From positions 2,176,001-2,240,000 of the forward strand of contig OY762654.1 of assembly GCA_963666205.1 (NCBI GenBank): 64,000 nucleotides of DNA, read 5' to 3'. Source of the DNA: Synergistales bacterium. Lineage in GTDB: Bacteria > Synergistota > Synergistia > Synergistales > JAFGMB01. Below the pieces are notes generated by a model. It was not told where the DNA came from. It saw nothing but the letters and a program-made list of their open reading frames with translations, and did no database searches. Below, in pieces: positions 3,331 to 15,464 of this stretch. Positions within the stretch are counted from its first letter, which is position 1, and each line of letters opens with the position of its first letter. A program made the position numbers and the translations under genes.

Positions 3331-4179
3331 TTATACTGCGAACATATTTTTTTCTTTCAGCCAGTTGAGAACTGTTTCTGCAAGTTCTATCCTTTTGCTA
3401 TGAAAGGAATGGCATCCATTCAGAATGGCATCTGCCGCTGTTGTTACATTGGCTTCTCTCAATGCTTTCATAAAAGGATAATGGTGTATTTCCGGATGTG
3501 ATATGTCGTCTCTGGCACCAGCTATTACCAGTAGATCCTTATCCTTGAAACCTGAAGCATGATTGGAAAAATCCCATTCTTCAGAGTTCCTGTCTATCTC
3601 TTCCAGAAGAGTTTCATGATCCGTTCCCTTGAGGGGCTGGCTGCAGTCGACGAACATTTCATGGGTAAGCTCGGCATATTCTTTGCTCATCCGGCGATTC
3701 CTGGCGACAGCTCCAAGGTTATAAGGAGCGATGGCGACAATTCGGTTAATTTCTGAAAGCCGGTAACCGTTCATTAGGGCAGAAAATCCTCCCACACTAT
3801 GTCCCATAAGAATGAACCTGGATGGGTCTACACAGTATTTCTCTATATTTGCTGGTTCCAGAAGATGTTTAATCACAGTCCTGGTATCATCAAGGACGTT
3901 CTGAAAAGAATAATCGCCCTCACTGCCCCAGGATCCCCGGTAATGAAATACCATTACGTTGAAACCGGCACGTCGGAATATCTGGGCCAGGTCAAAGTTG
4001 CGTTCGTTTCCGGGGAAGCCATGGAGAAGTAAAATTGTAGGATGTGGGCCTTTTCCCTGCGGGGTGTACATTATGCTGAAAAGCCTGGACCCTTCGCTTG
4101 GGATAGCCAGCTCCAGACAGCCTGCCGGATGTTCCAGATCGAGAAATTCCGGATCCTTTGAAATACATGTGAATGACAT
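3331..4179 (-). CDS. Alpha/beta fold hydrolase
   Basis: LHGFPG, YRGSWGS, GHSVGG nucleophile elbow, C-terminal HSF. Confidence 0.88.
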   Translation of the reverse strand: MSFTCISKDPEFLDLEHPAGCLELAIPSEGSRLFSIMYTPQGKGPHPTILLLHGFPGNERNFDLAQIFRRAGFNVMVFHYRGSWGSEGDYSFQNVLDDTRTVIKHLLEPANIEKYCVDPSRFILMGHSVGGFSALMNGYRLSEINRIVAIAPYNLGAVARNRRMSKEYAELTHEMFVDCSQPLKGTDHETLLEEIDRNSEEWDFSNHASGFKDKDLLVIAGARDDISHPEIHHYPFMKALREANVTTAADAILNGCHSFHSKRIELAETVLNWLKEKNMFAV

Positions 4180-9806: not shown

Positions 9807-11249
9807 TCAGTTCTGCAATTTGCTCATACCTTCCCGGGCCAAGGACATCAGATTCATGTAAGGGTCCATAATGTCGTTATGATAGGGCGAATGGACGAAG
9901 TAATGGCCAAAAAGGTCATTAACAGTTTCTTTCCTGGATATAATGTCTATAAACCTTTCAACCAGAAAAAGGGGAGACTCGTGATCCAGTACTACCTGGA
10001 ACCCGATTATCTGCCCTGGTCTGAGAGAATCCGAAACCCCGGTTGCAATTACTATCTTCCAGGTTCCATGGTGTCCTTCCGGCATGGCTTCTTCCCTGGT
10101 CCTGTAGGGTATTGTGATACCCATAGTTTCTATTCCAGCTCTCCGGGCAATTTCCTCAGACCATCCAACTCCTCCGAGATGAAGATCAAACACTGCTGTA
10201 AGCCCCCACACAGTGGCAGGAGGGAGTGTCGCCGACATGCCGGCTATATTCATGACTGCGACCATGGCCTGTCTCATGGCAAGGGTCCCTATCAGTGGGA
10301 GAACAGGAAACCCGGTTGCTCCATCCAGGATTTGGACCGCATCTCCTACGGCGTAAATATCAGGGTGGGATGTTCTCATTGTTTCATCAACAATGATACC
10401 TTTTTCTGTTCCAAGGCCCGATTTTTCTGCTATGGATATATTGGGTTTAACTCCTGTCGCGAAGATTATGCCGTCAGCATGGATCTTTTCTCCGTTATTC
10501 AGGTAAATCCCTTCTCTGAACACTTTCCTGACCTGAGTATCAGTAATCACTTTAATGTTCCTTGATTCTAGTCTTTCCAGCACAGTAGCTGTCATTTCGT
10601 TATCCAGGAAGGGTACTGCATGAGGAAGGGCCTCTATAAGGATAACCTCAAGACCTCTATCATAAAGGGCTTCGGCCACTTCAAGGCCTATGGCTCCTGT
10701 ACCTACTACTATTGCTTTTCTGTTATCTGAAGCGAATATGTCAAGGGAAAAAGAGTCTTCTGCTCCCCGCATGATATATACATTTTCAGCAAGAGATGAG
10801 CGAGGGATGATATCTTTACCCACCATTACCCATGTAAGGCTTTTATCCAGAGGAGCTTCTTTTCTTGTAACTCCATTGACTGGAGGGATCCAGCTCATTG
10901 CTCCGGTGGCCAGAATGGCCTTCTCAAATGTTATTTCCACATCTTCGGAAGATTGACGAATGGTTGCTGTCTTCTTCTCTGGGTCCAGGCCGATAACAAT
11001 TCCCCGAACTACATCTTTTAAGGTATCGGCCGGAAGCCTTTCAGGATCCTGCAGGTTCACCATCTCAGCCTCAGGGCCTGCAGGAACAAGTCTGCGCCCG
11101 ACACTGTAGGGTAGGCTGCATATTACTGTGGGGTCTTCGTTAATTACCAATGTGATATCGTCTATACCCATTTTTCTGGCCATCATGTATGAAACCCTAC
11201 CGCCAGGACCTCCTCCAATGATAAGAAGAGCGCAGCTGCTATGGACCAT
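9807..11249 (-). CDS. FAD-dependent pyridine nucleotide-disulfide oxidoreductase (NADH oxidase / CoA-disulfide reductase-like)
   Basis: IIGGGPGG, single-Cys ICSLPY, ATGA, VGTGAIGLE, TSHPDIYAVGD. Confidence 0.85.
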   Translation of the reverse strand: MVHSSCALLIIGGGPGGRVSYMMARKMGIDDITLVINEDPTVICSLPYSVGRRLVPAGPEAEMVNLQDPERLPADTLKDVVRGIVIGLDPEKKTATIRQSSEDVEITFEKAILATGAMSWIPPVNGVTRKEAPLDKSLTWVMVGKDIIPRSSLAENVYIMRGAEDSFSLDIFASDNRKAIVVGTGAIGLEVAEALYDRGLEVILIEALPHAVPFLDNEMTATVLERLESRNIKVITDTQVRKVFREGIYLNNGEKIHADGIIFATGVKPNISIAEKSGLGTEKGIIVDETMRTSHPDIYAVGDAVQILDGATGFPVLPLIGTLAMRQAMVAVMNIAGMSATLPPATVWGLTAVFDLHLGGVGWSEEIARRAGIETMGITIPYRTREEAMPEGHHGTWKIVIATGVSDSLRPGQIIGFQVVLDHESPLFLVERFIDIISRKETVNDLFGHYFVHSPYHNDIMDPYMNLMSLAREGMSKLQN

Positions 11250-11370
11250 CAATAAGATACCCCCTTGAATGAAAGATAAATGTCCATTAAGAATATTCCC
11301 TGTAAAGTATACATCATTGAAAATGTCGGGCGGAGCATGTCTTTCTTTACTATGGCCTTCTGTGTTATTG

Positions 11371-12321
11371 TCAGCACTCTGTTCCAGGATCTATCAGGTT
11401 AACCATTTCTCCCTCACCATCCAGATAGACCTTCAGATTATGCCTTATTATCTCCAGAGCCTTTTCCAGGTACCTTACAGATTCTCCACAGATATGAGGG
11501 GTAATGAAGACATTCTCCATTTCCCATAGCGGGCTATCTTGAGGAAGGGGTTCCGTGTAGAATACATCTGAAAAAAATGCCCGGAGTCTGCCAGTTTCAA
11601 GAGCTTCAACAAGATCTTCCTCATTGACTGTTTTTCCCCTTCCCATATTAATGAAACAGGATGTTTTCTTCATAAGATCAAAGTACCTGCGATCAACGAT
11701 CTTCTCTGTTTCCGGAGTGTGGGGTAGAAGATTTATCACATATTCACTCTGACGGAAAATCTCTTCCATCTCCAGAGAAGTATAGACCCTGTCCACATAT
11801 TGTATTTTCTCTGCTGTCTGTTTTGTTCCTATTACCTTCATGCCCATAAGGTTGGCCTTTTCAGCAATTTCCCTGCCAATTGCTCCAAGTCCGAGGATTC
11901 CCACAGTAGCACCTTCTATCTGGTCCTGTGCAGGAGAACGATCCCATTTCTTCTGCTGTCTGTTTCTTATTATTGCAGGGAAGTTTCTTGCCATCATTAT
12001 CATTGCCGCAATCGCATATTCAGCCATATGTACCCGATGAATTCCCTTTCCGCTTGTAAGTATGATTCCCATATCCTTCATCTTTTTTAGGGGAAGGTCG
12101 TCAATTCCGGCTCTTATGGACTGAACCCATTTTAGTAGAGGTGCCATGTCGATCATTTTTTCTGTAAGTTTTATGGTAATGAAAATTTCCGCATCCTTTA
12201 TTTTTTCCTCTATATTCTCCAGATCATTGCAAAACTCAAAATGTATGTCAGGAAACTCCTCGACAAGAGGCATGGCATCACTTTCAGGGTAATAGGCGGT
12301 ATAAAATAAAACTTTTCTCAA
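11371..12321 (-). CDS. D-2-hydroxyacid dehydrogenase family protein
   Basis: GILGLGAIG, LPHTPET, INMGRG, DVFYTEPLP, ITPHICG; TTG start at 12321 after AAGGAG. Confidence 0.92.
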   Translation of the reverse strand: MRKVLFYTAYYPESDAMPLVEEFPDIHFEFCNDLENIEEKIKDAEIFITIKLTEKMIDMAPLLKWVQSIRAGIDDLPLKKMKDMGIILTSGKGIHRVHMAEYAIAAMIMMARNFPAIIRNRQQKKWDRSPAQDQIEGATVGILGLGAIGREIAEKANLMGMKVIGTKQTAEKIQYVDRVYTSLEMEEIFRQSEYVINLLPHTPETEKIVDRRYFDLMKKTSCFINMGRGKTVNEEDLVEALETGRLRAFFSDVFYTEPLPQDSPLWEMENVFITPHICGESVRYLEKALEIIRHNLKVYLDGEGEMVNLIDPGTEC

Positions 12322-12451
12322 ATTGCTCACTCCTTCATTGTGATATTTTGTAAGTTGGTTCTTAATACATACTAAGGGTATAATTAATAATATCATTATC
12401 AGCTTCAAGGCGAAACGTATAATTATGGATTTGGAGAAAGGGGATAACTGA

Positions 12452-12784
12452 ATGAGTGGACATAAAATAAAAGTTTATATGGAGAAGGCGAGATCGGCTT
12501 CCTGCTGAGCTTCCATGCCCTATAGTAAAGAGGATAGAAGTACCTCTCCTGTTGAAGCGAACCGTGTGTTCGCCGCCGATCTGATGGGTAAGATAAGGGA
12601 AAAATACGGGGATCGAATGAGGATAGACATATATGATCCCCGATGTCCTTTATGGATATTTGACCTGATAAGGTTCAATGTAAGGGCCACTCAAGTTGTC
12701 TGGGTGATGGATGGGAAGCTTCTGGCCAGGGGAATACCTTACTGGGAAGAACTGGACAGCAGGATAGAAGAATTTATGCAATAG
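12452..12784 (+). CDS. Putative novel selenoprotein, 110 aa, thioredoxin-like fold, Cys-Sec (CU) motif; TGA 12506-12508 read as Sec
   Basis: TATAAT at 12418-12423 and SD GGAGAAAGGGG precede ATG 12452; MSGHKIKVYMEKARSASC-TGA-ASMPYSK continues in frame into ORF 12515..12784, whose own ATG lacks an SD. Confidence 0.75.
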
Positions 12785-13001
12785 AACATAAGGTATAAAG
12801 ACGTTTCAAGCTTTTTGTCTGCTGTCCATACTGTATATGGTAGGAAGGCTGATCACCTGAGATATGCCAATAGTGCAAAAATATAAGAATTTTATTGTAA
12901 AGGTTGAAATTTTACAAATAAGTAGTACTATGTGATACCTCGGTTTGTATAAGCCGATTATTGTATATTGTATATTAAGTTTGCAAGGAGATGGCTCCAC
13001 C

Positions 13002-14273
13002 ATGAATAGTTCACAATGGATAGGGCTCCTGATATTTCTGGGAACATATATTCTGATAGTAAGTGAGAGGGTTCACAGACTTAAAGCAGCTCTTCTCGGA
13101 ATATCTGCAGTACTTCTGATCCAGCTTGTTGAACAGACAGATGCCTTCTCTTACATTGACTTCAATACCATCGGATTACTCATAGGCATGATGATCCTGG
13201 TCGGGATCATCCGGAAAACGGGAATGATACAGTACATAGCAATAAAGGCAGTAAAGGTGAGTGCGGGTAATCCCTGGCTGCTTATGATTATGCTGTCAGG
13301 ACTTACTGCAATTATTTCTGCCCTGATCGATAATGTAACAACAGTTCTTCTTATAGGCCCCATAGCTCTTGCAGTTGCTGAAGTTCTGAAAGTGGATCCC
13401 GTGCCATTTATCTTTGCCGAGATATTCTCTTCCAACATTGGGGGGACTGCGACTCTCATCGGAGATCCGCCGAATCTTCTCATAGGCTCTGCCGCCGGCC
13501 TTTCCTTCAATGACTTTGTGCTTAACCTTGGACCTGCTGTCCTTTTATCCCTTGCAGTAATGTACGGAATCCTCTATTTCTGGTATGGCAAAGAACTTCG
13601 TCCTTCTGAACTCACGATCCACATTGCAGAAAATTTCAAGGAGCCCAAGGGACCGGAAGATATAGGACTGATTAAAAGGGTTTTACTTGTAATGCTGCTT
13701 GTCCTTACAGGTTTTATTTTCCATGGAAGACTTGGTATCGAAGCTGCTACCATTGCCCTTGCCGGAGCGACTCTGGGATTGCTGGTATGCCCTGTTGATG
13801 TAGAGGAAATTTTAAAGGATGTGGACTGGGTGACAATTCTGTTCTTTTCATCCCTCTTTATGCTTGTAGGGACCATAGAGCATCTTGGCCTTATCAGACT
13901 CCTGGCTGATCTTATGGTTACTGTAGTGGGCAGCCATTTTAAGGTTCTGTCCATTCTCCTGATATGGGGTTCCGGTATCATCTCTGCAATAGTGGATAAT
14001 GTTCCTTATACAGCTGCGATGATACCCCTCGTAAGGGATATAACTTCTCTGTCTGGTGTCCAGTCAGATTTTCTCTGGTGGTCCCTGGCCCTGGGTGCCT
14101 GTCTCGGAGGAAACGGGACACTTGTTGGTGCTTCGGCAAATCTGGTGATGGCAGGCATAGCAGAAAAGGACGGGATAAAAATCGATTTCAGGGCTTTTCT
14201 TGGCAGGGGCTCTGTAATGCTCTTCTTAACCCTTCTGGTTTCAACTCTTTACGTCTTTTTCCGTTACCTCTGA
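13002..14273 (+). CDS. ArsB/NhaD (ion transporter superfamily) membrane transporter
   Basis: ISALIDNVTT, SNIGGTATLIGDPPN, SAIVDNVP, LGGNGTLVGASAN; many hydrophobic helices. Confidence 0.9.
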   Translation: MNSSQWIGLLIFLGTYILIVSERVHRLKAALLGISAVLLIQLVEQTDAFSYIDFNTIGLLIGMMILVGIIRKTGMIQYIAIKAVKVSAGNPWLLMIMLSGLTAIISALIDNVTTVLLIGPIALAVAEVLKVDPVPFIFAEIFSSNIGGTATLIGDPPNLLIGSAAGLSFNDFVLNLGPAVLLSLAVMYGILYFWYGKELRPSELTIHIAENFKEPKGPEDIGLIKRVLLVMLLVLTGFIFHGRLGIEAATIALAGATLGLLVCPVDVEEILKDVDWVTILFFSSLFMLVGTIEHLGLIRLLADLMVTVVGSHFKVLSILLIWGSGIISAIVDNVPYTAAMIPLVRDITSLSGVQSDFLWWSLALGACLGGNGTLVGASANLVMAGIAEKDGIKIDFRAFLGRGSVMLFLTLLVSTLYVFFRYL

Positions 14274-14422
14274 TCCCACCCTTTAGCAATACTGAAAACT
14301 TACTCTCTTTCTTGCCTGGATCGCTGATCATTTTTGGGAAAGGGACATACTGATTCTTTTCGAAAAAACGATAGTGATGTACAATTCTAGTGGGTTAAAG
14401 TATTTTGAAAGGAGGAATGTTG

Positions 14423-15085
14423 ATGAGTCTGCAGGATAAACTTGATGTGATAGCGGCAGAATCAAAAAAGAGGTTTCCAGAGGATGCTCTGATGATCCTC
14501 GGTGAATTTAGAAAAGAGCTTGGTAATAGTGGGCTTAAGGAGAAAATTCCTGGAGAAAACAGCCTTCTTCCCCCCTTTGAGCTGGAAGATGAAGAGGGCA
14601 GATCCGTTTCCTCTGAAGACTTTCTTGCCAAGGGTCCCATGGTTCTGACATTTTACAGGGGGAGATGGTGACCCTACTGCCGTCTGCAGTTGCAGGCTTA
14701 TGAAGAGGTATATCTATCCATAAAGGAACTTGGTGCAAATCTGGTAGCAGTATCTCCAATGCTTTCGGCTTTTATCAGTGAATTCAGGGAGGAACTCGGT
14801 ATTACATTTCCCATACTATGTGACAGATCGAACAGGTATGCCTCCAGGCTGGACCTGACCTATATAATTTCCAATAATGTCCGGGAGGTTTATAAACAAT
14901 CAGGTATAGACCTTCCATTCTATAATGGTAATGAAAGCTGGGATCTACCAGTTACTGCGACTTTTATCGTTGATATTGAGGGTATTATCAGGTTTGCATG
15001 GAAGGAAACGGATCATACAAAAAGGCCGGAACCTGAATATCTTGTCGACTTTCTCAAGCAAATGAAAACCAGCGGGTTCTTTTAA
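14423..15085 (+). CDS. Peroxiredoxin-like AhpC/TSA (redoxin) selenoprotein, UxxC motif; TGA 14669-14671 read as Sec
   Basis: ORFs 14405..14671 and 14690..15085 share a frame and join as FYRGRW-U-PYCRLQL, matching the family motif FYRGxWCPYC. Confidence 0.88.
14682..14697 (+). promoter_or_regulatory. Candidate bacterial SECIS hairpin
   Basis: GTCTGC-AGTT-GCAGGC stem-loop; the loop starts 16 nt after the UGA and has G at its second position. Confidence 0.55.
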
Positions 15086-15164
15086 GGCCAGGTCCAGTCG
15101 CAGAAACCCTGATGATATAAACCCTACTGATCAAATATAATGTTGAGTGCGATCAAGCGTTAAA

Positions 15165-15464
15165 TTAGCTGTAAGTTCCGCATTCGGACAGGGTCTCTAT
15201 CTTCCGGTTACGGAAAAAGAGGAATATGTCAATGGATATCATCAGGATGTTTACGAGATATAATGCAGTAAGATAGCTGAAGCCAGGATAATCCAGGATA
15301 ACATGGGTTATCCCTGCAGAATATCCTGTGAGAACTATTAACAGGAAAAGGAGACTTTTCCCTTTTGTGCTTTGAGATACATATGATTTATAGACCGATA
15401 CCGGCCAGGCCAGGCCGAAGCATGCTATCATAACAGCTTCAAGTATTTGCCCCATATTGAACAC
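15165..15464 (-). CDS. Small PQ-loop/SemiSWEET-like membrane protein
   Basis: Three hydrophobic helices; CFGLAWP..KS..S.STKGKSLLFL. Confidence 0.7.
   Translation of the reverse strand: MFNMGQILEAVMIACFGLAWPVSVYKSYVSQSTKGKSLLFLLIVLTGYSAGITHVILDYPGFSYLTALYLVNILMISIDIFLFFRNRKIETLSECGTYS

Follow-up and report, generated by a model that had tools for sequence, protein, structure and literature searches.

In a 64,000-nucleotide stretch of DNA from a Synergistales bacterium (contig OY762654.1, positions 2,176,001 to 2,240,000; the whole of this stretch is called the window), a short gene on the forward strand, at window positions 12452–12784, is interrupted by an in-frame TGA at its 19th codon. Comparative sequence evidence indicates that this TGA is very probably decoded as selenocysteine (Sec) and that the gene is a member of a real, conserved family. 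Structure modeling predicts, also with considerable confidence, that the 110-residue product is a thioredoxin-fold protein in which Sec occupies the redox position. On balance, we favor a role for the protein as an oxidoreductase that works through a selenenylsulfide.

The ATG at 12452 opens the frame MSGHKIKVYMEKARSASC, which runs into the TGA at 12506–12508, continues for 91 further codons to the ending ...EEFMQ, and stops at a TAG at 12782–12784. The frame cannot begin further upstream, because a TGA directly precedes the ATG. This read-through frame, with a TATAAT box and a Shine-Dalgarno sequence ahead of it, had been proposed in an earlier reading of the window's letters (the original prediction), and the sequence bears it out. 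The TATAAT at 12418–12423 is the −10 part of a longer promoter-like site, and a purine run stands at the Shine-Dalgarno position (Table 1). A consensus scan finds six promoter-like sites in the segment from 12250 to 13000, compared with 2.2 ± 1.7 in shuffled sequences. The open reading frame (ORF) list made with translation table 11 begins the frame at 12515, after the TGA. As had also been noted, the ATG at 12515 lacks a purine run comparable to that at 12433–12443, and a product begun there would lose its first β-strand, in agreement with the AlphaFold2 model described below.

The relatives in public databases have similarly short reading frames. A word-indexed search with the read-through product as query returned nine database relatives, all of 61–89 residues, covering at most 81% of the query; neither the N-terminal strand nor the active-site residue is present in any of the nine. 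When 1.84 billion representative proteins were searched with a profile, 62 clusters were found at E ≤ 0.001, and many of these start at profile positions 24–29, just after the Sec codon. It follows that public gene calls truncate the Sec forms.

Translated searches of genomes, which disregard gene calls, give a different view of the site. Six-frame searching was first applied to 61 related genomes, of which 28 yielded 33 matches in all, 19 with an internal TGA and 14 without, and the TGA-less copies, when translated, show Cys opposite the TGA. Among 268 Synergistota genomes, 122 matches to the family are found in 98 genomes and in 38 of the 76 genera. Of these, 114 were analyzed, seven partial matches and G228:C104 being left out. 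When the 114 copies are aligned to a single profile, every Sec-site TGA sits in one column, and this column holds TGA in 67 copies, Cys in 45, Tyr in one and Phe in one. Conserved residues flank the site, namely E11 upstream and D62, P63, W84, P96 and W98 downstream, all invariant in 30 aligned rows. Thus, the inspection of read-through homologs that the original prediction had called for finds Sec or Cys at the site with conservation on both sides. In a collection of 185,579 species, all 36 confirmed loci are labelled Synergistota, the search patterns used there reaching close relatives only; the nearest locus is labelled Acetomicrobium hydrogeniformans.

The codons upstream of the TGA behave as coding sequence. 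In 14 homolog pairs, which are not independent of one another, the 14 codons before the TGA show 31, 16 and 95 differences at codon positions 1, 2 and 3, respectively, and in one pair all eight upstream differences are synonymous. This third-position bias indicates that the upstream region is under coding-type selection and is translated in the same frame as the rest of the gene. Over the full 110 codons, the gene differs from the ortholog of the same genus by 23 synonymous and 16 nonsynonymous codon changes, for a pN/pS of about 0.18 and a protein identity of about 86–87%. Among the circumstances that the original prediction had named as speaking against it are homologs that begin at the Met of 12515 and a TGA that arose by assembly error. 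Neither is the case. A counterpart of Met 12515 is present in two of 18 Sec forms, and five of the 18 have no Met at all within 19 codons after the TGA. As to the assembly, a contig of 3.8 kb from another study's metagenome of activated sludge spans 12300–12900 with 4 differences in 601 nt, and a contig from a metatranscriptome library of yet another study spans 12409–12900 with 35 differences, none of them listed in 12409–12525. The TGA is intact in both contigs, and assembly error is therefore ruled out. Contigs cannot prove transcription, and the start of the RNA-library contig's coverage of the gene, at 12409, is at best a weak hint in favor of the promoter-like site at 12396–12423. The 117 nt free of differences in that contig (12409–12525) take in the −10 box, the Shine-Dalgarno run and the first 25 codons with the UGA, and reach into the stem-loop. 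Such a segment, although seen in a single contig, is consistent with several constraints stacked on the same nucleotides.

The genome encodes the machinery for Sec insertion, another check that the original prediction had proposed. The tRNA-Sec gene, selC, scores 77.1 bits against a cut-off of 47; selA (564.7 bits) and selB (364 bits) are adjacent genes, and these two and selD (333.7 bits) all score above their cut-offs. The selD gene, at G000:C1:2905894–2906826 on the reverse strand, itself holds one in-frame TGA, so that selenophosphate synthetase is itself a selenoprotein in this organism. The second Sec gene that the original prediction placed about 2 kb away also exists; it is an AhpC/TSA-type frame at 14405–15085 with its TGA at 14669–14671.

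A SECIS-like stem-loop directly follows the UGA (Table 1). The minimum-energy fold of the 63 nt from the UGA has −10.7 kcal/mol. Its apical hairpin, at 12529–12547, consists of 7 bp with a bulge and closes on the loop GAAG at 12537–12540, so that 28 nt separate the UGA from a 4-nt loop that begins with G. The original prediction had drawn a different hairpin, CTAT / AGTAAAGAGG / ATAG with an outer GCTT/AAGT stem. The bases for it are present, but the structure is worth 0.0 kcal/mol with the inner stem and +0.6 kcal/mol with both, and it is abandoned here. In many Sec forms of the family, a hairpin lies about 18–45 nt past the UGA, where it overlaps the codons of a conserved G-E-E-E-M-x-S-F-P peptide. 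Since this peptide by itself favors complementarity, synonymous-codon shuffles were used as the control. For the segment +12 to +57, the median z is −1.52 in the 67 Sec forms, with 26 of them within the best 5%, versus −0.23 in the 45 Cys forms, with five within the best 5%. For +3 to +63, the medians are −1.29 and −0.36, respectively. Although the rows are related, the excess stability across the Sec forms supports a selected RNA structure in the family.

Several observations on the RNA and on sampling nevertheless weigh against the case made here. Over the gene's own +3 to +63 segment, 70% of synonymous shuffles weighted by codon usage equal or exceed the real sequence in stability (z +0.58), and the apical hairpin by itself is weak, at −5.3 kcal/mol. 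The constraints published for bacterial SECIS elements (bSECIS) are a loop of 3–9 nt, a G in the first two loop positions, a spacing of 16–37 nt and a minimum free energy of −7.5 kcal/mol or less (PMC13188914, Fig. 2 legend). The gene passes them in our own implementation, but so do 32 of 45 Cys forms and 354 of 670 shuffles, compared with 49 of 67 Sec forms, and passing is therefore no evidence. RNAalifold gave no consensus structure for 17 Sec forms, among which the register of the hairpin shifts by one codon between subgroups. An E-value scan of 12300–15200 with Rfam found no SECIS family at either Sec gene, the clearer Prx-type one included, and three chance-level matches. Finally, the homologs are relatives of one another, so that the counts given above and the Mann-Whitney p-values overstate independence.

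Turning to the protein, AlphaFold2 with a 30-sequence input gives a model with a pLDDT of 84.6, a pTM of 0.76 and the order β-α-β-α-β-β-α. The top Foldseek matches of this model are thioredoxins (best E 4.6e-4, TM 0.56), which agrees with the thioredoxin-like fold that the original prediction had read from the pattern of strands and helixes. In more distant relatives of full length, strand 1 is followed by HCxHC, another CxxC motif or a run of Cys. One MAFFT alignment, across a low-confidence loop, places the Sec column opposite the first CxxC Cys of five of these relatives.

Matches to named families are faint. No Pfam family matches the window protein, and NCBIfam returns only the "ArsD-related vicinal cysteine protein VcpD" (NF047871), whose score of 11.8 bits (cut-off 90; E 0.16) comes from a collinear match over residues 14–63. 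Thioredoxin_3 (PF13192; cut-off 24.8 bits) touches one of 30 aligned members at E 0.004, and two distant CxxC relatives reach it with 24.9–25.0 bits. Other distant relatives resemble the MJ0307, MTH895/ArsE, HUIPC and SaoT thioredoxin-like families at scores below threshold. None of the 30 members matches the models of ArsD (PF06953) or DUF1462 (PF07315) at E ≤ 1. Queried with a natural Cys-form homolog, the atlas gives unnamed clusters that are commonest in Synergistota, with scores of 0.92 and 0.91; a cluster with Thioredoxin_3 in 13% of its members scores 0.83, and one with DUF1462 in 24% of its members scores 0.81 at rank 29, a lead only. ArsD is absent among the 50 best structural matches from Foldseek and from VIA-align alike, a listing that does not exclude ArsD. 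The remote likeness to ArsD or YuzD put forward in the original prediction thus stays at the level of a lead. A profile search of the PDB found no thioredoxin or ArsD chain by sequence. The same search gave only a match to chains of RNA-free RNase P (HARP), at best E 5.4e-5; it is short and local, about 39 residues, and is taken as compositional.

The surroundings of the Sec are variable, as follows. The partner Cys is at −1, giving CU as in the window protein, in 35 of the 67 Sec forms, at −2 in 14, at +2 in seven, and at +1 only in four. Five forms have no near Cys but carry one in a D-P-[RK]-C (DPxC) turn, so that a Cys stands at −2, −1, +1, +2 or the DPxC position in 65 of the 67. The remaining two have a Cys in the same turn, three residues upstream of the DPxC position. 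The turn Cys is found in 47 of the 67 Sec forms versus two of the 45 Cys forms. Several members read V-C-U-G-G. In the same-genus ortholog, the pair reads S-U, with Ser in place of Cys18; it follows that the vicinal pair is not required even within the genus. The vicinal CU motif highlighted by the original prediction is thus real in the window protein (C18-U19) and is not a feature of the family as a whole.

The mechanism we propose is as follows. SelA, SelB, SelC and SelD, together with the stem-loop right after the UGA, would insert Sec at 12506–12508 to give a cytoplasmic thioredoxin-fold selenoprotein of 110 residues. Sec19 would lie on the long loop that connects strand 1 to helix 1 and is poorly ordered, where distant relatives have the attacking Cys of their CxxC motif. 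The protein would carry out thiol/selenol-disulfide exchange, in which the selenolate attacks an oxidized substrate. The resulting adduct would be resolved by a nearby Cys, either Cys18 or Cys65, to form an intramolecular selenenylsulfide, which a reductase would then reduce. Taken as a whole, with the redox mechanism included, this proposal is the one we hold to be probable, by a modest measure. Further points tell against it. The model is least confident at the Sec loop, with pLDDT below 50 at residues 17–19. In 22 of the 45 Cys forms, no second Cys is found within four residues or at the DPxC position, and a dithiol-type cycle is therefore not general in the family. No conserved partner emerged from a Pfam scan of 113 flanking ORFs or from tblastn searches of 30 loci, each of up to 16 kb, with seven proteins of the window; without a conserved neighbor, no partner or substrate can be named.

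Table 1. Features of the Sec gene and its neighborhood; positions are those of the window.
Feature	Positions	Strand	Basis
Promoter-like site TTATCA-16-TATAAT, −10 box at 12418–12423	12396–12423	+	Consensus scan, 10 of 12 matches; pattern match only
Shine-Dalgarno-like purine run GGAGAAAGGGG, 8 nt before ATG 12452	12433–12443	+	Sequence
Putative selenoprotein coding sequence, 110 residues, MSGHKIKVYMEKARSASCU...EEFMQ	12452–12784	+	Translation; homologs align over residues 1–110
Cys18 codon TGC, vicinal to Sec	12503–12505	+	Translation
TGA, very probably read as Sec, residue 19	12506–12508	+	Same alignment column is TGA or Cys in homologs
SECIS-like stem-loop: outer GCUUC/GAAGC, middle AUAG/CUGU, apical AGAGG-A-UA[GAAG]UA-CCUCU	12509–12558	+	Minimum-energy fold
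Cys65 codon, D-P-[RK]-C turn after strand 2, candidate resolving Cys	12644–12646	+	Family alignment
Pyridine-nucleotide disulfide oxidoreductase (flavoprotein), 481 residues, with dimerization domain; two genes upstream	9807–11252	−	
2-Hydroxyacid dehydrogenase, divergent	11371–12408		Pfam
CitMHS/ArsB-like permease, 160 nt downstream of the gene	12945–14273		CitMHS 2.2e-86; ArsB weaker, 1.2e-11
Prx-like UxxC selenoprotein, AhpC/TSA-type, U-P-Y-C, TGA 14669–14671	14405–15085	+	

The order of genes around 12452–12784 is shared only with the genome of the same genus. Elsewhere, the family gene adjoins unrelated genes, including those for glycogen synthesis, a CLC channel, histidine ammonia-lyase, PCMT and others. 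It behaves like a gene that stands alone, so that no function can be read from its context. Within the window, the frame at 14405–15085 resembles the catalogued "Prx-like thiol:disulfide oxidoreductase" selenoprotein; its NCBIfam matches are weak and include "SelL-related redox protein" at 35.1 bits against a cut-off of 120. The flavoprotein at 9807–11252 is a candidate reductase for the two nearby thiol/selenol proteins.

What other explanations would fit? One is that the TGA is an ordinary stop, and that either an 89-residue product is made from the ATG at 12515 or the gene is decaying or carries a sequencing error. This is what the gene callers chose, it fits the 61–89 residues of all nine database relatives, and the gene's own hairpin shows no excess stability. 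Moreover, a paralog in the sister genome, described below, has a second TGA at an otherwise invariant Trp, and some copies may be decaying. We regard this explanation as very improbable nonetheless, given a TGA at the exact column in 67 copies with Cys in 45, upstream codons that evolve as coding sequence in the same frame, and contigs of two other studies that retain the TGA. The start at 12515 fares no better, as it deletes strand 1, has no Shine-Dalgarno run and uses a residue, Met22, that is found only in the window's genus. A reading of the TGA as Trp is not indicated, because the genome otherwise uses TGA as a stop and has a tRNA-Sec. If the protein is a genuine selenoprotein, it might still be a binder or chaperone of soft metals or metalloids, either ArsD-like or of the kind proposed for CC/CU-motif proteins, and this we consider somewhat unlikely. 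Cys18, Sec19 and Cys65 would then be the three ligands for As(III), Sb(III), Hg(II) or similar ions, which would be handed to, for example, the CitMHS/ArsB-like permease. In its favor, the window protein does have these three candidate soft ligands, and the DPxC Cys accompanies Sec in most Sec forms. Distant relatives have GCC, CCC or CGCGC runs at the site, the sole NCBIfam echo is VcpD, and the next gene matches CitMHS and, more weakly, ArsB. The preprint of Haft and Gwadz, in its excerpted text, takes CC/CU motifs to suggest contact with heavy metals. The triad, however, is not conserved, since the same-genus ortholog has S-U and the DPxC Cys is missing in 20 of the 67 Sec forms. VcpD scores far below its cut-off, and PF06953 is absent in all 30 members. 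Outside the window's genus, the transporter does not adjoin the gene; of 30 other loci, each covered with up to 8 kb on both sides, just one has a distant CitMHS, about 2.5 kb from the family genes. No ArsA or ars-operon family is present at E ≤ 1e-8 among the 113 neighboring ORFs.

Two further ideas concern how the Sec might be used. The protein could be specialized in reducing the Prx-like selenoprotein whose gene lies 1.6 kb downstream, the two forming a peroxide-detoxifying pair. Both genes are on the + strand within 2.7 kb, with the transporter gene between them, and the flavoprotein gene lies 1.2 kb upstream on the other strand. One other genome (L051) has an AhpC/TSA fragment at about 1 kb from two copies of the family. 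The arrangement recurs only in the same-genus genome, though, and none of 30 other loci has a relative of the Prx-like protein or the flavoprotein within up to 8 kb. We therefore think such a pairing improbable; it would at most be a special case of the oxidoreductase proposal. It is also conceivable, if rather unlikely, that the family is a Synergistota-specific Se-S "swinging loop" protein in which Sec must stand beside a thiol whose place has shifted repeatedly among −2, −1, +1, +2 and the remote D-P-R-C turn, so that, in the form seen in the window, Cys18, Sec19 and Cys65 form a Se/S/S site and the protein is not a plain disulfide reductase. If this were true, the protein would be the first Sec counterpart of an ArsD-type metalloid chaperone or a carrier of reactive selenium or sulfur.

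Other copies of the family deserve mention. The organism's own genome has a second copy (G000:C1:1785949–1786266, + strand; L043:2989–3327) that is 54% identical to the window protein, has the TGA at the Sec column and reads V-C-U-S-N; a gene for a 929-residue PAS/HD-domain sensor follows it. The paralog in the sister genome (L044:2989–3327; G001:C2:56602–56919) has a second in-frame TGA at the otherwise invariant Trp84, the only internal TGA outside the Sec column. Decay of the copy, a sequencing error or a change from TGG to TGA could account for it; this G001 paralog and the partial copy L053 are omitted from alignment A1. Tandem pairs of family genes are present in three genomes (L051:3001–3330 and 3577–3906; L115, G170:C23:6602–7292; L161, G229:C78:4455–5323). 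At the site, one pair has Cys and Tyr, one Sec and Sec, and one Cys and Phe; the Tyr and Phe copies may be without redox function. Two matches, in two genomes of one genus, G036:C9:70520–70636 and G020:C13:48658–48777, cover profile positions 1–40 only, each with a TGA, and may be remnants of the 5′ end of the family gene.

Bacterial selenoproteins are found mainly by computation, and each family that goes unrecognized leaves truncated genes in the databases. Reviews call Synergistota, an anaerobic phylum, rich in selenoproteins, and recognition of the present family would improve selenoproteome counts for it. The family is also a natural series for asking why Sec is kept over Cys and how a resolving Cys is placed. 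Nearly all of its Sec forms carry a Cys close by, at varied positions, and about half of its Cys forms have no such neighbor.

The family does not appear in the catalogues and model libraries examined, a statement confined to these sources and not a claim that it has never been described. To that extent, the original prediction's view that it matches no described selenoprotein family holds. No entry fits in the 2022 table of 87 prokaryotic selenoprotein families (PMC9312934), nor in the 2026 catalogue of 119 (PMC13188914 Table 1), with which the family was compared by listed models, motifs and descriptions; catalogue entries defined only by cd or PTHR models fall outside the model scan. The models of the CU-motif entries CopZ-like form 2, SaoL, HgcA, SaoC, MbdU, KCU-star and SaoB do not match, nor do PF10262 (SelW/Rdx) and the other family models. 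The window protein and 30 members reach no Pfam or NCBIfam cut-off, and among 29 relatives only two reach one, that of PF13192. In the excerpted text of its report, deep-Sep gives no new selenoprotein in two Synergistota genomes, which may or may not carry the family (PMC12013277).

Among the closest known systems are the small thioredoxin-like proteins of PF13192, TIGR00411 (MJ0307) and TIGR00412 (MTH895/ArsE). Like members of the family, they are thioredoxin-fold proteins of about 80–120 residues in which the redox residue comes after strand 1, and the PF13192-type proteins share a C-terminal half of the form ...DG-x-x-x-x-G-[IV]-P-x-x-E-L.... They too, including Brachyspira Sec.1 and Sec.2 in the excerpted text of PMC5330540, show Sec/Cys pairs and have genes that are truncated in public annotation. 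Nevertheless, the window protein and 29 of the 30 members do not match PF13192, and the NCBIfam scores are far below the cut-offs. The Sec of the family sits on a loop of about 20 residues, compared with an N-terminal extension in the PF13192-type proteins as excerpted from PMC5330540. Moreover, the family is without the second Cys of CxxC, unlike the PF13192-type proteins, and has in its place a Cys at −2, −1, +1 or +2 or in D-P-[RK]-C. ArsD resembles the family in its size, its thioredoxin-type fold and two vicinal chalcogen residues that closely follow strand 1. The family differs from ArsD and VcpD in that none of 30 members matches PF06953 and there is no ars operon context. In animal thioredoxin reductase, the redox center is a C-terminal Gly-Cys-Sec-Gly, a flexible adjacent Cys-Sec pair that can form a selenenylsulfide. 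That center is a tail on a flavoenzyme, whereas the family's Sec lies on a loop of a small thioredoxin-fold protein. The two are not homologous, and adjacency of Cys and Sec is dispensable in the family. The thioredoxin-fold selenoproteins of the SelW/Rdx and other types use CxxU, at the start of a helix, or UxxC (PMC13188914 Table 1), in contrast to the CU, CxU, UC and UxC arrangements on the loop of the present proteins. To summarize, this is a new family within a well-known kind of selenoprotein.

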